The notes beneath the pieces are model-generated. The model was not told where the DNA came from, did not search any database, and worked only from the letters and a program-made list of their open reading frames with translations. From Parcubacteria group bacterium CG1_02_39_15 (GTDB lineage Bacteria > Patescibacteriota > Minisyncoccia > Minisyncoccales > Paceibacteraceae): a stretch of 43,201 bases of DNA. The stretch covers positions 1 through 43,201 of the forward strand of contig MNWE01000046.1 of assembly GCA_001872265.1 (NCBI GenBank), in the 5' to 3' direction. Both the position numbers and the translations under genes were made by a program. This document shows positions 7,476-43,201 of the stretch, piece by piece; within the stretch, counting starts at the first letter, position 1; each line of letters begins with the position of its first letter.

Positions 7476-7817
7476 ATGGCGAGGAAGAAAGCTACAGCAG
7501 TCGAAGAGGAAATTAAGCCGAAACTTAGAATCAAGCTGCGGGCTTATGATCATAAAGTGATTGACAATAGTGCTCGACAAATTATTGAGACAGCTTTGCG
7601 CTATGGTGCAGAAATTTCAGGTCCCGTTCCTTTACCAACCGAAATTCAAAAATATACCGTGAACAGGTCTTCGTTTATTCATAAAGATGCCCGGGAACAG
7701 TTTGAGATGAGAGTCCATAAAAGATTGATAGACATTTTGAGTCCGAACCAAAAGGTAATAGATGCCCTGATAAACCTTACTTTGCCGGCTGGAGTTGATA
7801 TTGAGATTAAAATGTGA
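7476..7817 (+). CDS. rpsJ: 30S ribosomal protein S10
   Basis: [14 protein letters not shown]...SGPVPLPT. Confidence 0.96.
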
Positions 7818-30666: not shown

Positions 30667-31356
30667 ATGTTGAGAGAACTAATTGATAAATTTTATTTGG
30701 ACAGGCAAAAAGATAAAGAACAGGCCCATTTTTACATTACTGATGCCGGCAGGTGCGGCCGGGCAGTATTTTTTAAGTTCAAAAATGCGCCTCGGAGAGA
30801 AATAGAGCCTAACGTTTTGAGATTATTTGATCACGGCGACTACATTCACCAGTTGATAATGAAACCTCTTTTAAGTATAAGAGAAATTCATGTGGTAGCT
30901 TCGGAAATCAAAATCCCTCCTCAAGAATTAGTTAGCGGCCGGGCAGATGCCATAATCAGCGATGGAAAAGATTTGTATGTCTTGGACATTAAAAGCATGA
31001 ACAGCATGATTTTCAGAAACTTAACGGAAGCCAAAGAAGAAAATATTAACCAAGTTCAGCTTTATTTGCACTATTTTAAAATACCCAGAGGTATCCTTCT
31101 CTATGTTAATAAAGACAACCAGGAATTAAAGGAATTTGTGGTAAATTATGACAAAAAACGCGTCCTTTTACTTTTGGACGGTCTAAGTAAGTTAAAAAAC
31201 AAAATCGAAAAAAACATTATTCCAGACAGACTTGCGGATTATCCCGATAATTGGCAGTGCCAATATTGTCAATTTAAGGCGATTTGCGCCTTGGCCAATG
31301 GGGGGAAGCTTAAATGGGAGGATTTCAAAAAGAAAACTGAAAGTCAACCCCGTTAG
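30667..31356 (+). CDS. PD-(D/E)XK nuclease, Cas4-like, with an Fe-S cysteine cluster
   Basis: N-terminal Cys (DAGRCGR), the DIK motif (VLDIKS), QxxxY (QVQLYLHY) and C-terminal CQYCQFKAIC. Confidence 0.7.
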   Translation: MLRELIDKFYLDRQKDKEQAHFYITDAGRCGRAVFFKFKNAPRREIEPNVLRLFDHGDYIHQLIMKPLLSIREIHVVASEIKIPPQELVSGRADAIISDGKDLYVLDIKSMNSMIFRNLTEAKEENINQVQLYLHYFKIPRGILLYVNKDNQELKEFVVNYDKKRVLLLLDGLSKLKNKIEKNIIPDRLADYPDNWQCQYCQFKAICALANGGKLKWEDFKKKTESQPR

Positions 31357-31378
31357 AAATTTGTTTAAGAATAAAACA

Positions 31379-31444
31379 GCGACGGACGGTGGCCGAATAG
31401 GCCAGTCCTCCAAAAGAGGACAAACTATTCGTTTAGTCCGTCGC
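31379..31444. ncRNA. Candidate four-way-junction (cloverleaf-like) RNA, strand unresolved
   Basis: A closing stem GCGACGGAC / GTCCGTCGC encloses three hairpins: TGGCC-GAATA-GGCCA, GTCCTC-CAAAA-GAGGAC and AAAC-TATTC-GTTT. Confidence 0.25.
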
Positions 31445-31514
31445 CAGAGATTAACAAAATTATCCTAGAAATTTAAAACTAAACTAAGTTTGCAATAGCA
31501 AATTTCTAACGGGG

Positions 31515-32843
31515 TCAAAATAAAGCCGCCGAGGCATAAAGATTTTCGCTACTGAGAAGGTACAACTTTTTATTAAAGCTGTTCCAGAACATTTCCGGTT
31601 CCTTAAATTTTGTGAGGTCTATGATATTTATTTGGTCCCTATCGTCAGTTTCAGCAATCTTAATTGTATCTGTGGTATTAAAAATCAAATAGTCGGGATT
31701 TAGCCAAAAACAATCTTTTATTTTTTCTGAAAGCCGAGCTATTAATATTTTATCTCCGGCTTTTTTTTGTGGCGGGTCCAGTTTTTCTTGTAAAAACAAG
31801 ATCCAGATTTCGTGGTTTGAAAAGAGAACCAACTTATTTTTGTCAGAAGAGATTTTTAATCCTTTTATTCCGTCAAAATATCTTTCAAACGATTTTGAAT
31901 CAAGATTAAACCAGTACAAATCTTGATTCTCCCGTAAAAAGATAAAGTTTTGAAACTTTTTTATATCATAATCGGTTTCGGCCTTCACCGGAAAAGACGT
32001 TCGCGTCAACCTCTCTCCATCTTTAAAAAAGTTTCCCAAATTGTCTAAATAATAAGAATCTCCGTCAAAAGTTTGAGAAGTAACAATGTTTTCCGGGAGG
32101 AGGGCAGGATTCCCCTCTTCTTTTAGTGACGGAGGAGTTTTATCAATTTCTAAGGTAAAATACTTTAGCTCTTCTCTAGCCCCGCTAGTCGATGAAGTTT
32201 GCCTCTCCGAGTTTGCCTTCATCTCCACTCCTCGCTCCGTTCGAGTTTCTAAAGAGATTTTTTTAGGATTATCTGCAGAGAATTCCAGATTTAATAGATC
32301 GGCTCCTTTAGAAAAAATATCACCTTCAGCAATTAAGTGGCTTTTGATGTTCGTTTCTAAATCGTAAAGCTTCAGACTCCAACCTTGTCCCCCTTTTTCT
32401 TTTAGGACCAGCTCTTTTTTATTAAGAGAGAGCCAAAAATTTTCTACTCCCTTAGTTAAAACTGTAAAATTTAAATTCTGAGGAAATAGAATAATGTTTT
32501 TTACCTCGGTTACTTCTTTCTCTTTTACTTCCAGGCTTTTTTGCCACGACAGATACCCCTCCTTTTTTACCTCAATTTTGTATTTTCTCGGCAAAAGATT
32601 TTCTACTAAGGCCGAACCAAAGAAAAAATCAGTTTTCTTTTTCAATTTTTCGTCCAGATAAATCTCAGCCTGTTTAGGAATAACCTTAAGGAAAATTCCG
32701 CCAGTCTGGGTAATTTTTTTTCCGCCAGCTGGCGGATTCAAATCAAATCTATAACCCTGAGAGTAAAAGATGGTCAAGGGAGCAGCCAAAAGAAACAAAA
32801 ATAAACAAACCCAAAATATAACTGCCCTTACTTTTTTTACCAT
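31515..32843 (-). CDS. PEGA-domain membrane-anchored protein
   Basis: N-terminal TM helix, a PEGA-like segment (IYLDEKL...YKIEVKKEGYLSWQKSLEV) and a long beta-rich C-terminal part. Confidence 0.65.
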   Translation of the reverse strand: MVKKVRAVIFWVCLFLFLLAAPLTIFYSQGYRFDLNPPAGGKKITQTGGIFLKVIPKQAEIYLDEKLKKKTDFFFGSALVENLLPRKYKIEVKKEGYLSWQKSLEVKEKEVTEVKNIILFPQNLNFTVLTKGVENFWLSLNKKELVLKEKGGQGWSLKLYDLETNIKSHLIAEGDIFSKGADLLNLEFSADNPKKISLETRTERGVEMKANSERQTSSTSGAREELKYFTLEIDKTPPSLKEEGNPALLPENIVTSQTFDGDSYYLDNLGNFFKDGERLTRTSFPVKAETDYDIKKFQNFIFLRENQDLYWFNLDSKSFERYFDGIKGLKISSDKNKLVLFSNHEIWILFLQEKLDPPQKKAGDKILIARLSEKIKDCFWLNPDYLIFNTTDTIKIAETDDRDQINIIDLTKFKEPEMFWNSFNKKLYLLSSENLYASAALF

Positions 32844-32912
32844 GATTTTTCTATATTATCGTATTAGCCACATAATTTCAATAAACGAAAAAATCTGTTA
32901 GAATATTAAAGT

Positions 32913-34196
32913 ATGTTTGCTTTTCCGAAAATTGAAGAGGTGACTAAGGACACAACGGTTGTCCATTTTTTGCTAATGTTCGGCTACAAATTATTTTCTC
33001 TTTATTTCCCTTTGTTTCTAGTAACTCGAGGCTTGTCGCTTCCCGAAGTAGGCTACACCTATCTTTTAATTTATCTTCCTTTGGCAATTTTTTCTCCCGT
33101 TGTTGGCTTTCTAAACCATAAAATAAGCCCCGCCACAACATCTTCAATCGGAATTTTGGGCTATGCCCTCTATGCTTTAGGAATGATTTTTATCCCCGCT
33201 ACTCATCCTGCTGGAGCAGCTTTGTTTTATTTTTGGCAGATTATCCTGGGAATTTCGGCAGCCATGTTTTTTGTTTCAGCCAGGTCTATTTTAATAGCTG
33301 CTCCTTTGGAAAATTACGACCGGGCTTTTGGCTGGTTTTATTCTGCTCCCTTTTACGCCGATGCCATAGCTCCCTGTATTGGCGCCATTTTTATCTGGAA
33401 ATTCAACTTTTTTGGCGTTTTTGTTTTTAGCTTCATTGTCCAGGTTTTAACGGCTATTTTTTGTTTTTCTCAGCTCAAAAAACAAGAAATCAAACCTCTT
33501 GATAGATATTTTAATCTTCAGAAATTTCAGCAAAGCTACGCCAGCGCTTTCCAAAAAATAAAAAACAAAACAATTTTACTGCCGGTTCTTATTTCTTTCT
33601 CCGCTCTTTTATTAACTGGTTTCTACCGAGCCTTTTTTATTTTATTTTTGAAAGAATCTTTAAACTGGTCTCAAAATCTAATTCTAATTTTAATTTCTGC
33701 TTTTTCCCTTTTGTTTTTGCCCATATCCTTTCTATTAATTCGGCAATTGGGAGGTTTTAGAAGTGAAAAAAATATTTTTCAGGGAGGGTTGATTACTGGC
33801 CTCTTCTCTATTTTATTTGGAATTTTAATTCCGGTTCTGAATTTTTTGGCGGTTTTAATAATAGAAATCGGCAAATCGGCAGGTTCTTTAATCGCTAATG
33901 CCGGCAGGTCTGGATTAATTACCCGAGTGATAGCGAAGGGTGAAGATGAAACTTTAGTTTCATCGCCTTCTCAGAAATTAAAAGATGGCCCCGAGGAAGC
34001 TAGCGTTATAGATACCATCTTTGCTCCTTTGGGCGTGGCTTTGGGGGCTTTTATTTCCGGCTTGCTTATCGGATTTTTAGGTTACCAATTTTTGTTTATT
34101 TTAGCTGGAGTTTTTTTGATTGCCGTAATAGCCCTAACTCAACTTGCCCCGTTAGAAGTCCTTGGCAGAAAAATTAAAAAATTTTTTCTGCTTTAG
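32913..34196 (+). CDS. MFS-type transporter
   Basis: About 12 hydrophobic segments in two halves separated by a charged loop. Confidence 0.7.
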   Translation: MFAFPKIEEVTKDTTVVHFLLMFGYKLFSLYFPLFLVTRGLSLPEVGYTYLLIYLPLAIFSPVVGFLNHKISPATTSSIGILGYALYALGMIFIPATHPAGAALFYFWQIILGISAAMFFVSARSILIAAPLENYDRAFGWFYSAPFYADAIAPCIGAIFIWKFNFFGVFVFSFIVQVLTAIFCFSQLKKQEIKPLDRYFNLQKFQQSYASAFQKIKNKTILLPVLISFSALLLTGFYRAFFILFLKESLNWSQNLILILISAFSLLFLPISFLLIRQLGGFRSEKNIFQGGLITGLFSILFGILIPVLNFLAVLIIEIGKSAGSLIANAGRSGLITRVIAKGEDETLVSSPSQKLKDGPEEASVIDTIFAPLGVALGAFISGLLIGFLGYQFLFILAGVFLIAVIALTQLAPLEVLGRKIKKFFLL

Positions 34197-34483
34197 TCAA
34201 ACAAAATTATCAACAAAATATAATTGAGCTATCTAAAATTAACTGTTTTGGTTATATAAAAACAGACTTCTAACGGGGCTTGCCAACCCCCCAAAAACAT
34301 TTTAATATAAAAGAACAATATTACCACTATGCCCCGTTAGAAATCGCAAGGGTTTTCGGGGCAATAATTCAGTTCAAAATATTTTCTACCTAAAAACCCT
34401 TTGATCAATTCAAACAATGATTATCAAGACATTCAAAGGTCAAAACATAATAACCACTGAAAATATTTAATTTCTAACGGGGT

Positions 34484-35488
34484 ATGCCAAGAAAAATCGG
34501 AATTGATTTAGGTACCTGTAACTCTTTGGTCTTTGTGCCGGGGAAAGGAGTGGTCTTGCAAGAGCCATCGGTTGTAGCTGTGGCTCTTTCTGAAAACAAA
34601 ATTTTAGCTGTGGGCGAAGCAGCTAAAGAGATGATCGGCCGCACTCCCGACACCATCAGAGTTTATCGTCCCTTAAAAGACGGAGTAATCGCTGATTTCC
34701 GGGTGACTTTAGCTATGTTGAGATATTTTATTGACAAGGTTTCTGGATTTTGGCGATTCATTAAACCAGAATTATTGATCGGAGTTCCGGCCGGTATCAC
34801 TTCTACCGAAAGGCGGGCAGTTATTGAGGCTGGTGTAACGGCTGGAGCTAAACAAGTTTTTGTAGCTAAAGAGCCCATCTTGGCTGCTATTGGGGCTGGA
34901 GTGCCGATTAGCTCTTGTTCGGGAAATATGATTGTGGATATCGGCGGCGGAACATCCGAGGTGGCGGTAATTTCTTTGGGCGGAATAGTAACTGCTAATT
35001 CAGTTAGAGTTGCTGGCGACGAAATGGATTTGGCTATTTCTGACTACATTAAGAAAAAATACAATTTAGCTATCGGAGAACAAACCGCTGAAGATATAAA
35101 AATAAAAATTGGCACAGCTCTGCCAGAAAAGGAAGAAAAAACAATGGAAATCCGCGGGCGAGATTTAGTCTCAGGCTTGCCCAAGAACATTAAAATTTTT
35201 TCTGGTGAAATAGCCGCTGCCATTACCGATCCTCTCGCAGAAATTATTCAAGTAATCAAGCAGGTGTTAAGGGATACTCCGCCAGAGTTATCAGCTGATA
35301 TTATGGATAAGGGTATGGTCTTGGCCGGCGGAGGGAGCTTGTTAAAGAACCTTCCCAGTCTTATTGCCCAATCAACCGGTGTGCCTTGCATTTTGGCCGA
35401 AGAGCCTTTATCTTGCGTGGCTAGGGGCACTGGTGTAGTTCTGGAAAACCTCGAAGTTTATAAAAAGAGCATAACATCTAAGAAATAA
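34484..35488 (+). CDS. mreB: Rod-shape-determining protein MreB (paralog 1)
   Basis: IGIDLGTCNS, DIGGGTSEVAVISLGG and LAGGGSLL actin-fold motifs. Confidence 0.93.
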   Translation: MPRKIGIDLGTCNSLVFVPGKGVVLQEPSVVAVALSENKILAVGEAAKEMIGRTPDTIRVYRPLKDGVIADFRVTLAMLRYFIDKVSGFWRFIKPELLIGVPAGITSTERRAVIEAGVTAGAKQVFVAKEPILAAIGAGVPISSCSGNMIVDIGGGTSEVAVISLGGIVTANSVRVAGDEMDLAISDYIKKKYNLAIGEQTAEDIKIKIGTALPEKEEKTMEIRGRDLVSGLPKNIKIFSGEIAAAITDPLAEIIQVIKQVLRDTPPELSADIMDKGMVLAGGGSLLKNLPSLIAQSTGVPCILAEEPLSCVARGTGVVLENLEVYKKSITSKK

Positions 35489-35632
35489 ATCAAAAAATAA
35501 ACATTACAAACAACTTTGTCTCAACCTTATATCTACTTTATATCAATTTATATCCTTGATATATATAGAGATAAAGTTGAAATAAATAGAGATAAATAGA
35601 GATAAATTGTTTTGACTTTTGTATCTTGAGTT
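35489..35632. repeat. TATATC/GATAAA low-complexity palindromic spacer element
   Basis: The left arm has TTATATC words. The right arm has GATATA/AGAGATAAAT words, including AATAGAGATAAATAGAGATAAAT. Confidence 0.6.
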
Positions 35633-39463: not shown

Positions 39464-40516
39464 ATGTTAAACAAACTTCTCCATCTTTTTTCAGAAGACA
39501 TAGCTATTGATTTGGGAACAGCCAACTCGGAGGTTTATGTTCGGGGTCGGGGAATCGTTATCCAGGAACCTTCGGTAGTGGCAATAAATCAGAAAACCGG
39601 CCAGATTTTGGCTATCGGCCTGGAAGCTAAAAAAATGGTAGGCAGAACGCCAGCTCACATTGTTGCCACCAGGCCTCTTAGAGCAGGAGTGATTTCTGAT
39701 TTTGAGGTAACCGAGCAAATGCTGAGGTATTTTATTGAAAAAGCCCATAAAAGAAGATGGCCTCTGAATCCTCGGCCAAGAATAATTATTGGTATTCCCT
39801 CCGGCGTAACTGAAGTGGAGACAAAGGCAGTGATTGATGCTGGAAAATCGGCCGGGGCAAGAGAGGTCTTTTTGATTGAAGAACCCATGGCAGCCGCTAT
39901 TGGCGCCCGTCTTCCGGTTCAGGAAGCAGGGGGCAATTTTGTTGTTGATATTGGTGGCGGGACAACCGAAGTGGCAATTATTTCTTTGGGAGGAATAGTT
40001 TTGGCTAAAAGTTTAAGAGTGGCCGGAGATAAACTTAATGAAGATATAATTCAGTTTGCTCAAGAAGAATATAAATTATTAATTGGCGAGAGAACCGCCG
40101 AAGCCATCAAGATTGGCATTGGCTCAGCTTATCCCCTTAAAGACAAAAGGGAGTTGCCAATGCGAGGCAGAAACTTAGTCACCGGCCTACCCGAAGAAAT
40201 TATGGTTTCTGACGAAGATATAAGAAGGGCAATGGAAAAATCAGTGAAGCAAATTATTGCCGAAATTAAAACAGCGGTTGAGGAAACGCCGCCCGAATTA
40301 TTGGCCGATGTGATGGCTCAAGGAATTCATCTGTCTGGAGGGGGCTCACTTCTGCGAGGCCTAGATATTTTAGTGGCTAAGGAAACCAAGATTCCGACTA
40401 AAATGATTGAAGATCCCATGACTGCCGTAGTGAGGGGAGCGGGTCAGGTGCTGGAAAATCTTGATGAATTGCAAGAAGTATTAGTGGAAACCGAGGAACT
40501 GGAACCACCCCGTTAA
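39464..40516 (+). CDS. mreB: MreB (paralog 2)
   Basis: IAIDLGTANS, DIGGGTTEVAIISLGG and LSGGGSLLRGL. Confidence 0.93.
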   Translation: MLNKLLHLFSEDIAIDLGTANSEVYVRGRGIVIQEPSVVAINQKTGQILAIGLEAKKMVGRTPAHIVATRPLRAGVISDFEVTEQMLRYFIEKAHKRRWPLNPRPRIIIGIPSGVTEVETKAVIDAGKSAGAREVFLIEEPMAAAIGARLPVQEAGGNFVVDIGGGTTEVAIISLGGIVLAKSLRVAGDKLNEDIIQFAQEEYKLLIGERTAEAIKIGIGSAYPLKDKRELPMRGRNLVTGLPEEIMVSDEDIRRAMEKSVKQIIAEIKTAVEETPPELLADVMAQGIHLSGGGSLLRGLDILVAKETKIPTKMIEDPMTAVVRGAGQVLENLDELQEVLVETEELEPPR

Positions 40517-40538
40517 AATTTCTAATTTCTAAACCTTT

Positions 40539-42816: not shown

Positions 42817-43117
42817 CGCGGGATGGAGAAGTAGTATCTTGCGAGGCCCATAAAATTTTGTGGCCCAGGGTGGCAACATCCTGTGGAAAACTTCCTAAAT
42901 TGCTGGGAACCCCTACTTTTCAGCTTAGAAGGTAGGGCAATCAGCAGCCAAGCCCTGTGAGATAATTTCATATCTTATAGGGAAGGTTCAGAGACTATAA
43001 TGGAAGCCCCATGAGATAATTTTCTATCTCACGGGGGTGGTATAGTCCGTCCCATTTGGTAACAAATGGATTAACATAGAGAACCTCGAGACGTGGGTGC
43101 AATTCCCACTCCCGCAA
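42817..43117 (+). tRNA. Initiator tRNA-fMet (CAU) interrupted by a group I intron (exons 42817-42851 and 43082-43117)
   Basis: The joined exons give CGCGGGA-UG-GAGA-AGUAGUA-UCUU-G-CGAGG-CCCAUAA-CCUCG-AGAC-GUGGG-UGCAAUU-CCCAC-UCCCGCA-A. This parallels E. coli tRNA-fMet, including the C1xA72 mismatch. Confidence 0.85.
42852..43081 (+). ncRNA. Group I intron, 230 nt, no ORF
   Basis: P (AAAUUGCUGGGAA, 42897-42909), Q (AAUCAGCAGCC, 42939-42949), R (GUUCAGAGACUAUA, 42986-42999) and S (UAUAGUCC, 43041-48) are present. P1 pairs CCAU with GUGG, with a U-G wobble at the splice site. P3 is CUUCC/GGAAG and P7 is GACUA/UAGUC. P2 and P9 have GNRA loops. The terminal G is at 43081. Confidence 0.85.
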
Positions 43118-43131
43118 CAAGGAAGGTGCCG

Positions 43132-43201
43132 GCCGGGGTAGCTCAGCGGTTAGTAGCAGGGTCTTCATAAGGCCAAGGTCGTGAGTTCAAATCTCACCCC
43201 C
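43132..43201 (+). tRNA. tRNA with CAU anticodon (elongator Met or Ile2), 3' end cut by the window edge
   Basis: GCCGGGG-UA-GCUC...UAGC-A-GGGUC-UUCAUAA-GGCCA-AGGUC-GUGAG-UUCAAAU-CUCAC-CCCC... Confidence 0.85.

Follow-up and report, generated by a model that had tools for sequence, protein, structure and literature searches.

The 43-kb stretch analysed here, the window, comprises all 43,201 nucleotides of contig MNWE01000046.1 from Parcubacteria group bacterium CG1_02_39_15, and between a Cas4-like nuclease gene and mreB it carries three inverted pairs of a short motif with the consensus CCCCGTTAGAA[A/G]T. Forward copies (CCCCGTTAGAAAT or its GAAGT variant) begin at 31348, 34147 (GAAGT) and 34332, and the reverse copies finish at 31514, 34278 and 34482, giving the pairs 31348–31514, 34147–34278 and 34332–34482; a singleton copy with 2 mismatches lies at 40508. 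An initial annotation of this DNA had listed the motif with all coordinates correct, and had proposed that the pairs are either terminal inverted repeats (TIRs) of small cassettes similar to the miniature inverted-repeat transposable elements known as MITEs, or binding sites of a protein that marks gene ends. We consider it probable that the three pairs are the TIRs of three non-autonomous MITEs, termed c1, c2 and c3, from a family with a full-length member of approximately 282 bp, and that the GIY-YIG nuclease encoded by that member drives their mobility. The elements and their target-site duplications (TSDs) are as follows.

31348–31514, minus strand: element c1, a non-coding MITE of 167 bp with a perfect 16-bp TIR (CCCCGTTAGAAATTTG)
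31344–31347, no strand: left copy of the c1 TSD, TCAA
31515–31518, no strand: right copy of the c1 TSD, TCAA; read on the minus strand as T/TGA it gives the stop codon of a 442-amino-acid (aa) gene
34147–34278, plus strand: element c2, a MITE of the Candidate Phyla Radiation (CPR) sub-family (cluster 1), 132 bp with a perfect 14-bp TIR and GAAGT in both arms
34143–34146, no strand: left copy of the c2 TSD, CTTG
34279–34282, no strand: right copy of the c2 TSD, CTTG; the site is empty in locus L126
34332–34482, plus strand: element c3, a MITE on the mreB start codon, 151 bp with a perfect 13-bp TIR
34328–34331, no strand: left copy of the c3 TSD, TATG, which opens a mini open reading frame (ORF), ATG CCC CGT TAG
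34483–34486, no strand: right copy of the c3 TSD, TATG, which provides the mreB ATG (34484)

Inverted-repeat insertions in the window

Within the window the motif is clearly more frequent than base composition predicts. Allowing up to 2 mismatches, 7 matches were found against 1.71 expected, a number reached in 0 of 100 shuffles; exact 11-mers of the motif occur 6 times against 0.013–0.02 expected, and the paired pattern was found 3 times, compared with 0.00 in shuffled sequence. An exact direct repeat of 4 bp borders every pair (TCAA for c1, CTTG for c2, TATG for c3), and the chance of all three arising together is approximately 6e-8. In c2 the A-to-G change that yields GAAGT is present on both arms; the variant had been recognised earlier at 34147, but the reverse copy at 34266–34278, taken then for a standard one, is also GAAGT (ACTTCTAACGGGG).

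No open frame was found in c1, c2 or c3 in any of six frames, nor any nuclease similarity or remnant, and alignment of the three interiors to one another, a comparison suggested in the initial annotation, revealed them to be unrelated. Searches against Rfam at gathering and at permissive (E up to 5) thresholds gave no match in or near the window elements, and scans of the region for promoters and terminators returned counts at chance level. The polarity of c1 was assigned from its target, which reads TTGAC on the minus strand. This element has a unique interior with strong predicted structure: a GC-rich three-hairpin multiloop at 31378–31446 (z approximately −4.7 against shuffles) is present only in c1, with no Rfam match and no relative among the comparison loci that we fetched (designated L0xx, L1xx and L2xx). 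Variable GC-rich hairpin inserts were also seen in MITEs from Deltaproteobacteria.

Comparison with related genomes, a check that had been proposed for the pairs, revealed empty sites. All three elements are present in near-identical strains (99.7–100% identity), and in L126, a population variant, the c2 site is empty (...cggCTTGccaaacc...). The syntenic relatives L128–L132, with an MFS transporter 65–67% identical to that of the window, have the c1 site without the element; in L128 and L130 this site is an unoccupied GGTCAA, and a 234-aa Cas4-like gene overlaps the convergent gene. The TSDs around all three pairs and the empty counterparts of c1 and c2 show that these are insertions and not host signals. 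The window copies are shorter than approximately 500 bp and non-coding, have perfect TIRs of 13–16 bp, 4-bp TSDs, empty sites and hundreds of family members elsewhere, and share their termini with a coding element. The cassette interpretation of the initial annotation, including its three pairs, is borne out by these features.

Further insertions were noticed in the same comparison. Two c3-like elements stand in tandem at positions 104–418 of L126 with a common TATG, the outer copy having a C-to-T change in its left terminus; the target regenerated by a c3-like insertion appears to have been re-used there. The MFS–mreB spacer that in the window holds c2 and c3 is filled in L128 (5740–5845) and L130 (5745–5850) by a different inverted-repeat element, approximately 95 bp long and bounded by CCCCGCACC...GGTGCGGGG, with TGAA coming next; it may represent a sister family whose termini differ.

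The genes next to the insertions, and one further motif-like feature, are listed below.

30667–31356, plus strand: Cas4-like PD-(D/E)XK nuclease gene, 229 aa against 234 aa in relatives
32913–34196, plus strand: MFS transporter gene, with a C-terminal tail (APLEVLGRKIKKFFLL) read from the TSD/element junction into c2
34484–35488, plus strand: mreB, parted by c3 from its upstream region, its ATG kept by the duplication
40508–40535, plus strand: possible decayed terminus-to-terminus relic (CCCCGTTAAAATTTCTAATTTCTAAAC), resembling a relic after holB in L128 and L130

In the Cas4-like gene the last 7 codons are replaced by Pro-Arg-stop from c1, the frame ending, as had been annotated, at a TAG within the motif. 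The MFS gene has had its last 7 codons (ANPPKTF) and stop replaced by c2. When c1 and one repeat copy were removed in silico, the Cas4-like gene regained its 7 codons, reached 234 aa and overlapped the convergent gene, as in the relatives; removal of c2 with one repeat copy gave an MFS protein ending in ...LANPPKTF and a stop, and after removal of the elements mreB starts approximately 27 nt after the MFS stop. The c1 element hit the 442-aa gene at its stop codon and so shortened the Cas4-like gene that overlapped it, c2 took over the tail of the MFS gene, and c3 landed on the mreB start codon. These insertions account for the changed C-terminal ends of both the Cas4-like and the MFS protein and for the long structured leader before mreB. 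The remaining gene-boundary contacts reported earlier are also real: the mreB ATG (34484) lies 1 nt past a motif copy, a TAA within the 40508 copy ends the second mreB paralog (mreB2), and the stop of the convergent gene (31515–31517) abuts the motif. The name PEGA given to that convergent gene is unconfirmed, as its 442-aa product gave no Pfam match.

Some smaller features were recorded in the same regions. Putative terminus-to-terminus micro-relics, in which CCCCGTTA[G/A]AAAT is directly followed by a degenerate ATTTCTAAAC, occur immediately behind the mreB2 stop in the window (40508–40535) and the holB stop in L128 (7723–7760). Within holB of L130, a 59-bp mini-element with a TAAA duplication (63 bp in total; 7662–7720) lies in frame and adds 21 residues (NPVRNYNNGAKASREQISNGV), the product having 312 aa against 288–291 aa in relatives. 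A short tandem repeat of ATAAATAGAG units occupies 35560–35610 in the mreB–holB spacer of the window, where the near-identical contig L125 has a run of N. A group I intron at 42842–43069 (Rfam RF00028, 89.7 bits) interrupts the anticodon loop of an initiator-type tRNA-Met gene that spans 42817–43117 (CGCGGGATGGAG...CCCATAA / ...CCCGCAACA), and a second, intact tRNA-Met lies at 43132.

The element family and its coding member

A scan for paired termini, with one genome taken per species, returned at least 120 contigs carrying at least 146 short copies, with a length peak at 126–132 bp (mode approximately 130 bp). Hosts among the matches listed include Patescibacteria, Deltaproteobacteria/Thermodesulfobacteriota, Omnitrophota, Planctomycetota and others, with the caveat that the taxonomy of metagenome-assembled genomes can be wrong. 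Two sub-families with conserved interiors were distinguished, an AT-rich one in CPR, to which c2 belongs, and a GC-rich one in Deltaproteobacteria, whose contigs reach 882 kb. Hairpin folding is common to the elements. A plasmid collection gave no match, and phage contigs only 4 distant relatives.

On insertion of an element, a T-initial tetranucleotide such as TGAA, TTGA, TATG or TAAA is duplicated; the duplication is 4 bp long, rarely 3 or 5 bp. Identical 4-mers flank 100 of the 140 copies that were re-examined, and many of the others have 3-bp or 5-bp duplications. The target is asymmetric, R/T-V-A-A, and falls mainly into the classes ATGAA, GTAAA, GTCAA and (N)TATG. Element orientation is tied to target polarity, in 22 of 22 cases in cluster 2 (the Deltaproteobacteria sub-family) and in a ratio of 12:1 for TGAA in the CPR sub-family, and relative to flanking genes the orientation in the Deltaproteobacteria sub-family is mixed.

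As the genome-wide pattern allowed only interiors of 91–151 nt, it was blind to full-length copies, and one in locus L024 was found only through its adjoining MITE, 472 bp away on the same contig. This element is 282 bp long, shares the termini, is flanked by a duplicated TGAA, and consists of two termini of approximately 14 bp and one ORF encoding a 93-aa GIY-YIG nuclease. At its left end the terminus is open in this frame from its very first base, in continuation of a host ATG (ATG AA/C CCC GTT AGA AGT..., MNPVRS...); the stop codon is a TAA inside the right terminus (GAC TTC TAA CGGGG/TGAA), and the terminal G together with the duplicated TG forms a GTG start for the host membrane-protein gene that follows. 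At ATGAA insertions, this regenerated host GTG lies 4 nt past the nuclease stop.

Database searches gave 956 homologues of the nuclease, many of exactly 93 aa, and most often they begin with MNPVRS/N. Where the N-terminus differs, it agrees with a different target: MSPVRS with TGAG, MDPVRS with TGGA, VNPVRS with GTGAA and MSTNINPVRS with ATAAA. We then used a sample of 80 metagenome loci picked solely by two protein motifs. Both termini were present in 79 of the 80, at a distance of 280–287 bp (three longer), the exact left 11-mer occurring in 60 and the exact right 11-mer in 56 loci, and 53 of the 79 copies had an exact 4-bp TSD. Of 25 copies with a terminus that departs from the consensus, 18 show the same change at the two ends. 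Among 68 readable copies, 58 have the ORF ending at the terminal TAA. For its start, 19 copies use a host ATG that lies 5 nt outside the element, and in 41 only an internal ATG is available, located 13–21 nt (approximately 18 nt in most) inside the element. In frame-0 elements of the latter group the TAG of the left terminus stands in frame just upstream. With the ORF set on the plus strand, the duplications are TGAA in 23 copies (TTCA 0), TTGA in 12 (TCAA 2) and TATG in 8 (CATA 0). A terminus variant, TCCCG...CGGGA, with a matching change at the other end, was observed in L135 (1501–1790) and in L144, L150, L158, L192 and L205; its terminal A switches the regenerated host start from GTG to ATG.

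Short and full-length forms are connected by sequence, the window copies being stripped-down, non-coding derivatives. A MITE in L028 keeps a truncated remnant of the nuclease gene, and in cluster-1 MITEs the subterminal 31 nt match the parental right end. The latter carry this right end in both orientations, their left end being an inverted copy of it, and for this reason the polarity of cluster-1 MITEs cannot be equated with that of the ORF. An empty counterpart was also found for a full-length copy: the one in L133 sits at the ATGA overlap of hisF and hisH, and in L224 (...agactATGAAaaatcct...) the junction is like the reconstructed site, L223 having ATGAG there.

The 93-aa protein matches the Pfam GIY-YIG domain (PF01541, E=2e-17), with invariant Y10/Y12, Y23-I-G25, R33, H37, E57 and N83. 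Its AlphaFold model (pLDDT 79) has a beta-beta-alpha-beta-alpha-alpha arrangement typical of the GIY-YIG fold; the nearest solved structures are UPF0213 BH0048 and Slx1, 1zg2 and Slx1 being the best fold hits and 1zg2 also the best match by sequence (E=6e-6). The motifs, the catalytic Arg and Glu and the fold place the protein in the UPF0213/Slx1 branch of the superfamily. Neither Pfam nor the AlphaFold model revealed a DNA-binding domain beyond the catalytic core, and the group I intron endonuclease model TIGR01453 gave a weak match of 28 bits, below its cut-off of 56. A median ratio of nonsynonymous to synonymous substitution of approximately 0.16 shows the nuclease to be under purifying selection. 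Other small GIY-YIG genes, 36–43% identical to the element nuclease and without these termini, were seen in L053 (7130–7440) and L222 (500–860), flanked by direct repeats resembling tRNA gene halves, an alternative carriage of the same nuclease family.

Insertion sites at gene boundaries

A positional bias at gene boundaries, which the initial annotation had wished to see examined, holds family-wide. Surviving copies cluster on start codons, stop codons (often ATGA overlaps) and −35 boxes, where the duplication leaves the host signal intact on the correct side. For 77 distinct full-length copies, a long downstream ORF begins at the regenerated codon in 40, through a GTG made with the terminal G (22), the ATG of TATG (10), an ATG arising from a terminal G-to-A change (4) or otherwise (4). 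The upstream long ORF stops within the duplication in 19 of the 77, of which 12 are ATGA stop/start overlaps. Copies of the TTGA class sit in TTGAC(A), with a TAnnnT hexamer (a −10 box) 16–18 nt further on in 13 of 16 copies against a background of 5% (p approximately 1e-14). The targets of this class are −35 boxes, the promoter staying intact on the host side.

For short elements in low-GC genomes, occupancy of ATGAA was 13 of 135 sites at true starts, 4 of 16 at true stops, 1 of 253 in intergenic regions and 2 of 1092 within coding sequence; overall, starts were favoured over intergenic sites with an odds ratio of 9.8 (p=3e-11). The start-site bias was not significant in high-GC genomes. Removal of the elements at the RNA level, in the manner of introns, was rejected because coding sites are strongly depleted.

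We propose that a preference for T-initial tetranucleotides and two filters together shape where copies survive. By the first, insertions would be harmless only where the host signal is regenerated; by the second, coding copies would be expressed only if a host promoter, start codon or stop codon precedes them. What ties the motif to gene ends is that insertions are tolerated, or useful to the element, at starts, stops and −35 boxes; the motif is not a host mark of gene ends, and the binding site that had been suggested is not supported. That suggestion, in which the motif is a host signal recognised by a DNA- or RNA-binding protein or forms the closing stem of small RNA genes, agrees with the motif abutting start and stop codons and with the concerted changes on both arms. 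Yet the TSDs and empty sites identify insertions, the interiors are mutually unrelated and without Rfam match, and at the c1 and c2 sites no copy is present in relatives that share the gene order, which makes a host signal hardly credible.

Mobilisation of the elements and alternative explanations

Co-inheritance of the GIY-YIG gene with the termini, purifying selection on it and the lack of any other associated gene lead us to infer that its product mobilises the elements. The nuclease from full-length copies would recognise the termini, make staggered 4-nt cuts in donor and target, and move full-length copies as well as, in trans, MITEs. The termini are perhaps bound as a hairpin or cruciform; this is proposed because of the kinship to Slx1 and the concerted changes at both ends. 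Ends may be joined by the nuclease itself or by host repair and ligation, and both the nuclease and the displaced host gene would be expressed via start-codon capture and termination-reinitiation. We slightly favour the further view that the approximately 282-bp element is the smallest autonomous transposable element described, capturing host signals, handing them back and having spawned MITEs across several phyla. According to this view it brings along neither a promoter nor a ribosome-binding site and in many cases no start codon, targets host starts, stop/start overlaps and −35 boxes, and is translated from the captured signal, the host gene receiving a regenerated start codon or promoter.

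Several points weigh against nuclease-driven transposition. A bare 93-aa GIY-YIG domain would have to excise and integrate DNA, and the GIY-YIG enzymes described so far hydrolyse DNA and are not known to carry out strand transfer. TIRs with 3–5-bp TSDs are the classic signature of a DDE transposase. Full-length copies at different loci are at most approximately 92% identical, which does not indicate recent activity of the coding form. This form was seen only in CPR-like, low-GC contexts, with no GC-rich full-length partner found for the Deltaproteobacteria MITEs and no autonomous copy in the 43-kb window. The strict coupling of MITE orientation to target polarity also does not seem to be explained by the model; it could stem from non-palindromic cohesive ends or an asymmetric nuclease–DNA complex.

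If instead an unseen DDE transposase, for example an IS1380/piggyBac-like one, moves both the MITEs and the 282-bp form, the GIY-YIG gene would be a passenger or addiction gene. The TIRs and short TSDs, the exact duplication of off-consensus 4-mers, as expected of staggered DDE cuts, and the want of any known DNA joining by GIY-YIG enzymes suit such an enzyme, as does the likeness of the CCC... ends and T..A-type 4-bp targets to those of piggyBac and IS1380. However, among the matches listed, no transposase or other recurrent gene was found near 146 MITEs in 120 loci, where only housekeeping families recur, and none of the ORFs between close element pairs is transposase-like. No DDE transposase ORF lies in or near more than 200 element-bearing loci, the sole ORF being GIY-YIG. 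Longer elements with these termini and a matching TSD were not found, the long pairs being coincidences that span two MITEs, and solo termini used as markers of longer elements gave 14 matches, about the chance number, with no adjoining transposase. The termini accompany 79 of 80 motif-picked nuclease genes, the first codons and stop of the ORF lying inside them. We regard a hidden DDE enzyme as rather unlikely. A homing or maintenance role, with the GIY-YIG protein cutting empty sites or donor gaps, repair copying the element back and another activity moving it, has precedents: TnpB restores IS605 by cutting, with repair copying the element back, and free-standing phage GIY-YIG genes spread via double-strand-break repair. 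The sub-threshold TIGR01453 match points the same way. Copies at many unrelated loci with TSDs are nevertheless not a homing product, the protein has no DNA-binding domain beyond its core, and no second enzyme was found near the elements, and we hold this role to be quite improbable.

The last alternative is a single-strand mechanism like that of IS200/IS605 or REP/RAYT, in which the right "TSD" would be part of the element and insertion would occur 3′ of a tetra- or pentanucleotide. Such a mechanism would account well for the asymmetric R/TVAA target strictly tied to orientation and for the folding into hairpins. Against it, the rare off-consensus 4-mers TTCG, CGAG, CCTA and TCCA are duplicated exactly and the TSD varies from 3 to 5 bp; exact duplication of rare 4-mers indicates a genuine staggered-cut duplication and not an IS200/IS605-type event. 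No Y1/HUH gene was found near the elements, and covariation of the TSD with element-internal positions, as for an IS605-type guide, was confounded by sub-family and unconvincing. We consider it highly improbable.

The elements could not be assigned to DDE insertion sequences, IS200/IS605 and REP/RAYT, I-TevI-type homing endonucleases or Rfam families. Known MITEs trace to DDE insertion sequences. Bacterial MITEs such as Correia, RUP, Nezha and Chunjie resemble the window copies in being short, non-coding and multi-copy, in having TIRs, TSDs and hairpins and in lying in or near genes, sometimes fused in frame; here, unlike in those families, the sole coding relative is a 282-bp GIY-YIG element and the termini are identical across phyla. 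Identity with Chunjie was ruled out by its 21-bp TIRs and 9-bp direct repeats (PMC3184786). The piggyBac/IS1380-like elements presumably share short TIRs with a C-run, a T-initial 4-bp duplication and, in principle, scarless excision; our element differs by having no DDE transposase, a non-palindromic target and a polarity fixed relative to the element. IS200/IS605 (TnpA Y1), PATEs and REP/RAYT are alike in tiny size, hairpin-rich ends, a short asymmetric target and orientation-specific insertion. Those systems depend on a Y1 HUH enzyme and leave the target unduplicated, whereas the duplications described here are genuine and no Y1 gene was found near the elements.

Among GIY-YIG proteins, the UPF0213/YhbQ-like proteins and eukaryotic Slx1 have the same catalytic domain, UPF0213 being also of about the same size as the element nuclease. 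Slx1 is a structure-specific nuclease that cuts branched and stem-loop DNA, an activity that fits a palindromic element. Unlike the element nuclease, these proteins are not reported within TIR/TSD-bounded elements and their frames do not cross inverted repeats. Homing endonucleases of the I-TevI/Seg type are likewise selfish GIY-YIG genes placed between or before host genes with little damage. They have a separate DNA-binding domain and one cognate allele and depend on recombinational repair, without TIRs or TSDs; the present element, by contrast, occupies many unrelated sites with 4-bp duplications and encodes a 93-aa catalytic core only. In the literature searched on the motif, on CPR MITEs, on GIY-YIG proteins with TIRs or TSDs and on UPF0213/YhbQ, no description of the family was found, though one may still exist; as far as that literature goes, the GIY-YIG-encoding 282-bp element is previously undescribed.

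Transposon superfamilies are defined by their enzyme, be it DDE, HUH, tyrosine or serine recombinase, DEDD or Cas1. Should the elements indeed be moved by the GIY-YIG nuclease, a new class of enzyme would join this list, and the minimum size known for autonomous mobile elements would fall. Hundreds of metagenome annotations reading "GIY-YIG nuclease family protein" are probably mobile-element genes, and gene callers will mis-place the starts of adjoining host genes. With its defined recognition end of 13 bp and its 4-bp target, so small a nuclease may also merit a trial as a tool. The layout, with a frame running through both repeats, a captured host start and a regenerated GTG, stop or −35 box, represents an unusually economical parasitic strategy, which explains how mobile DNA can be maintained by CPR bacteria despite their very compact genomes.

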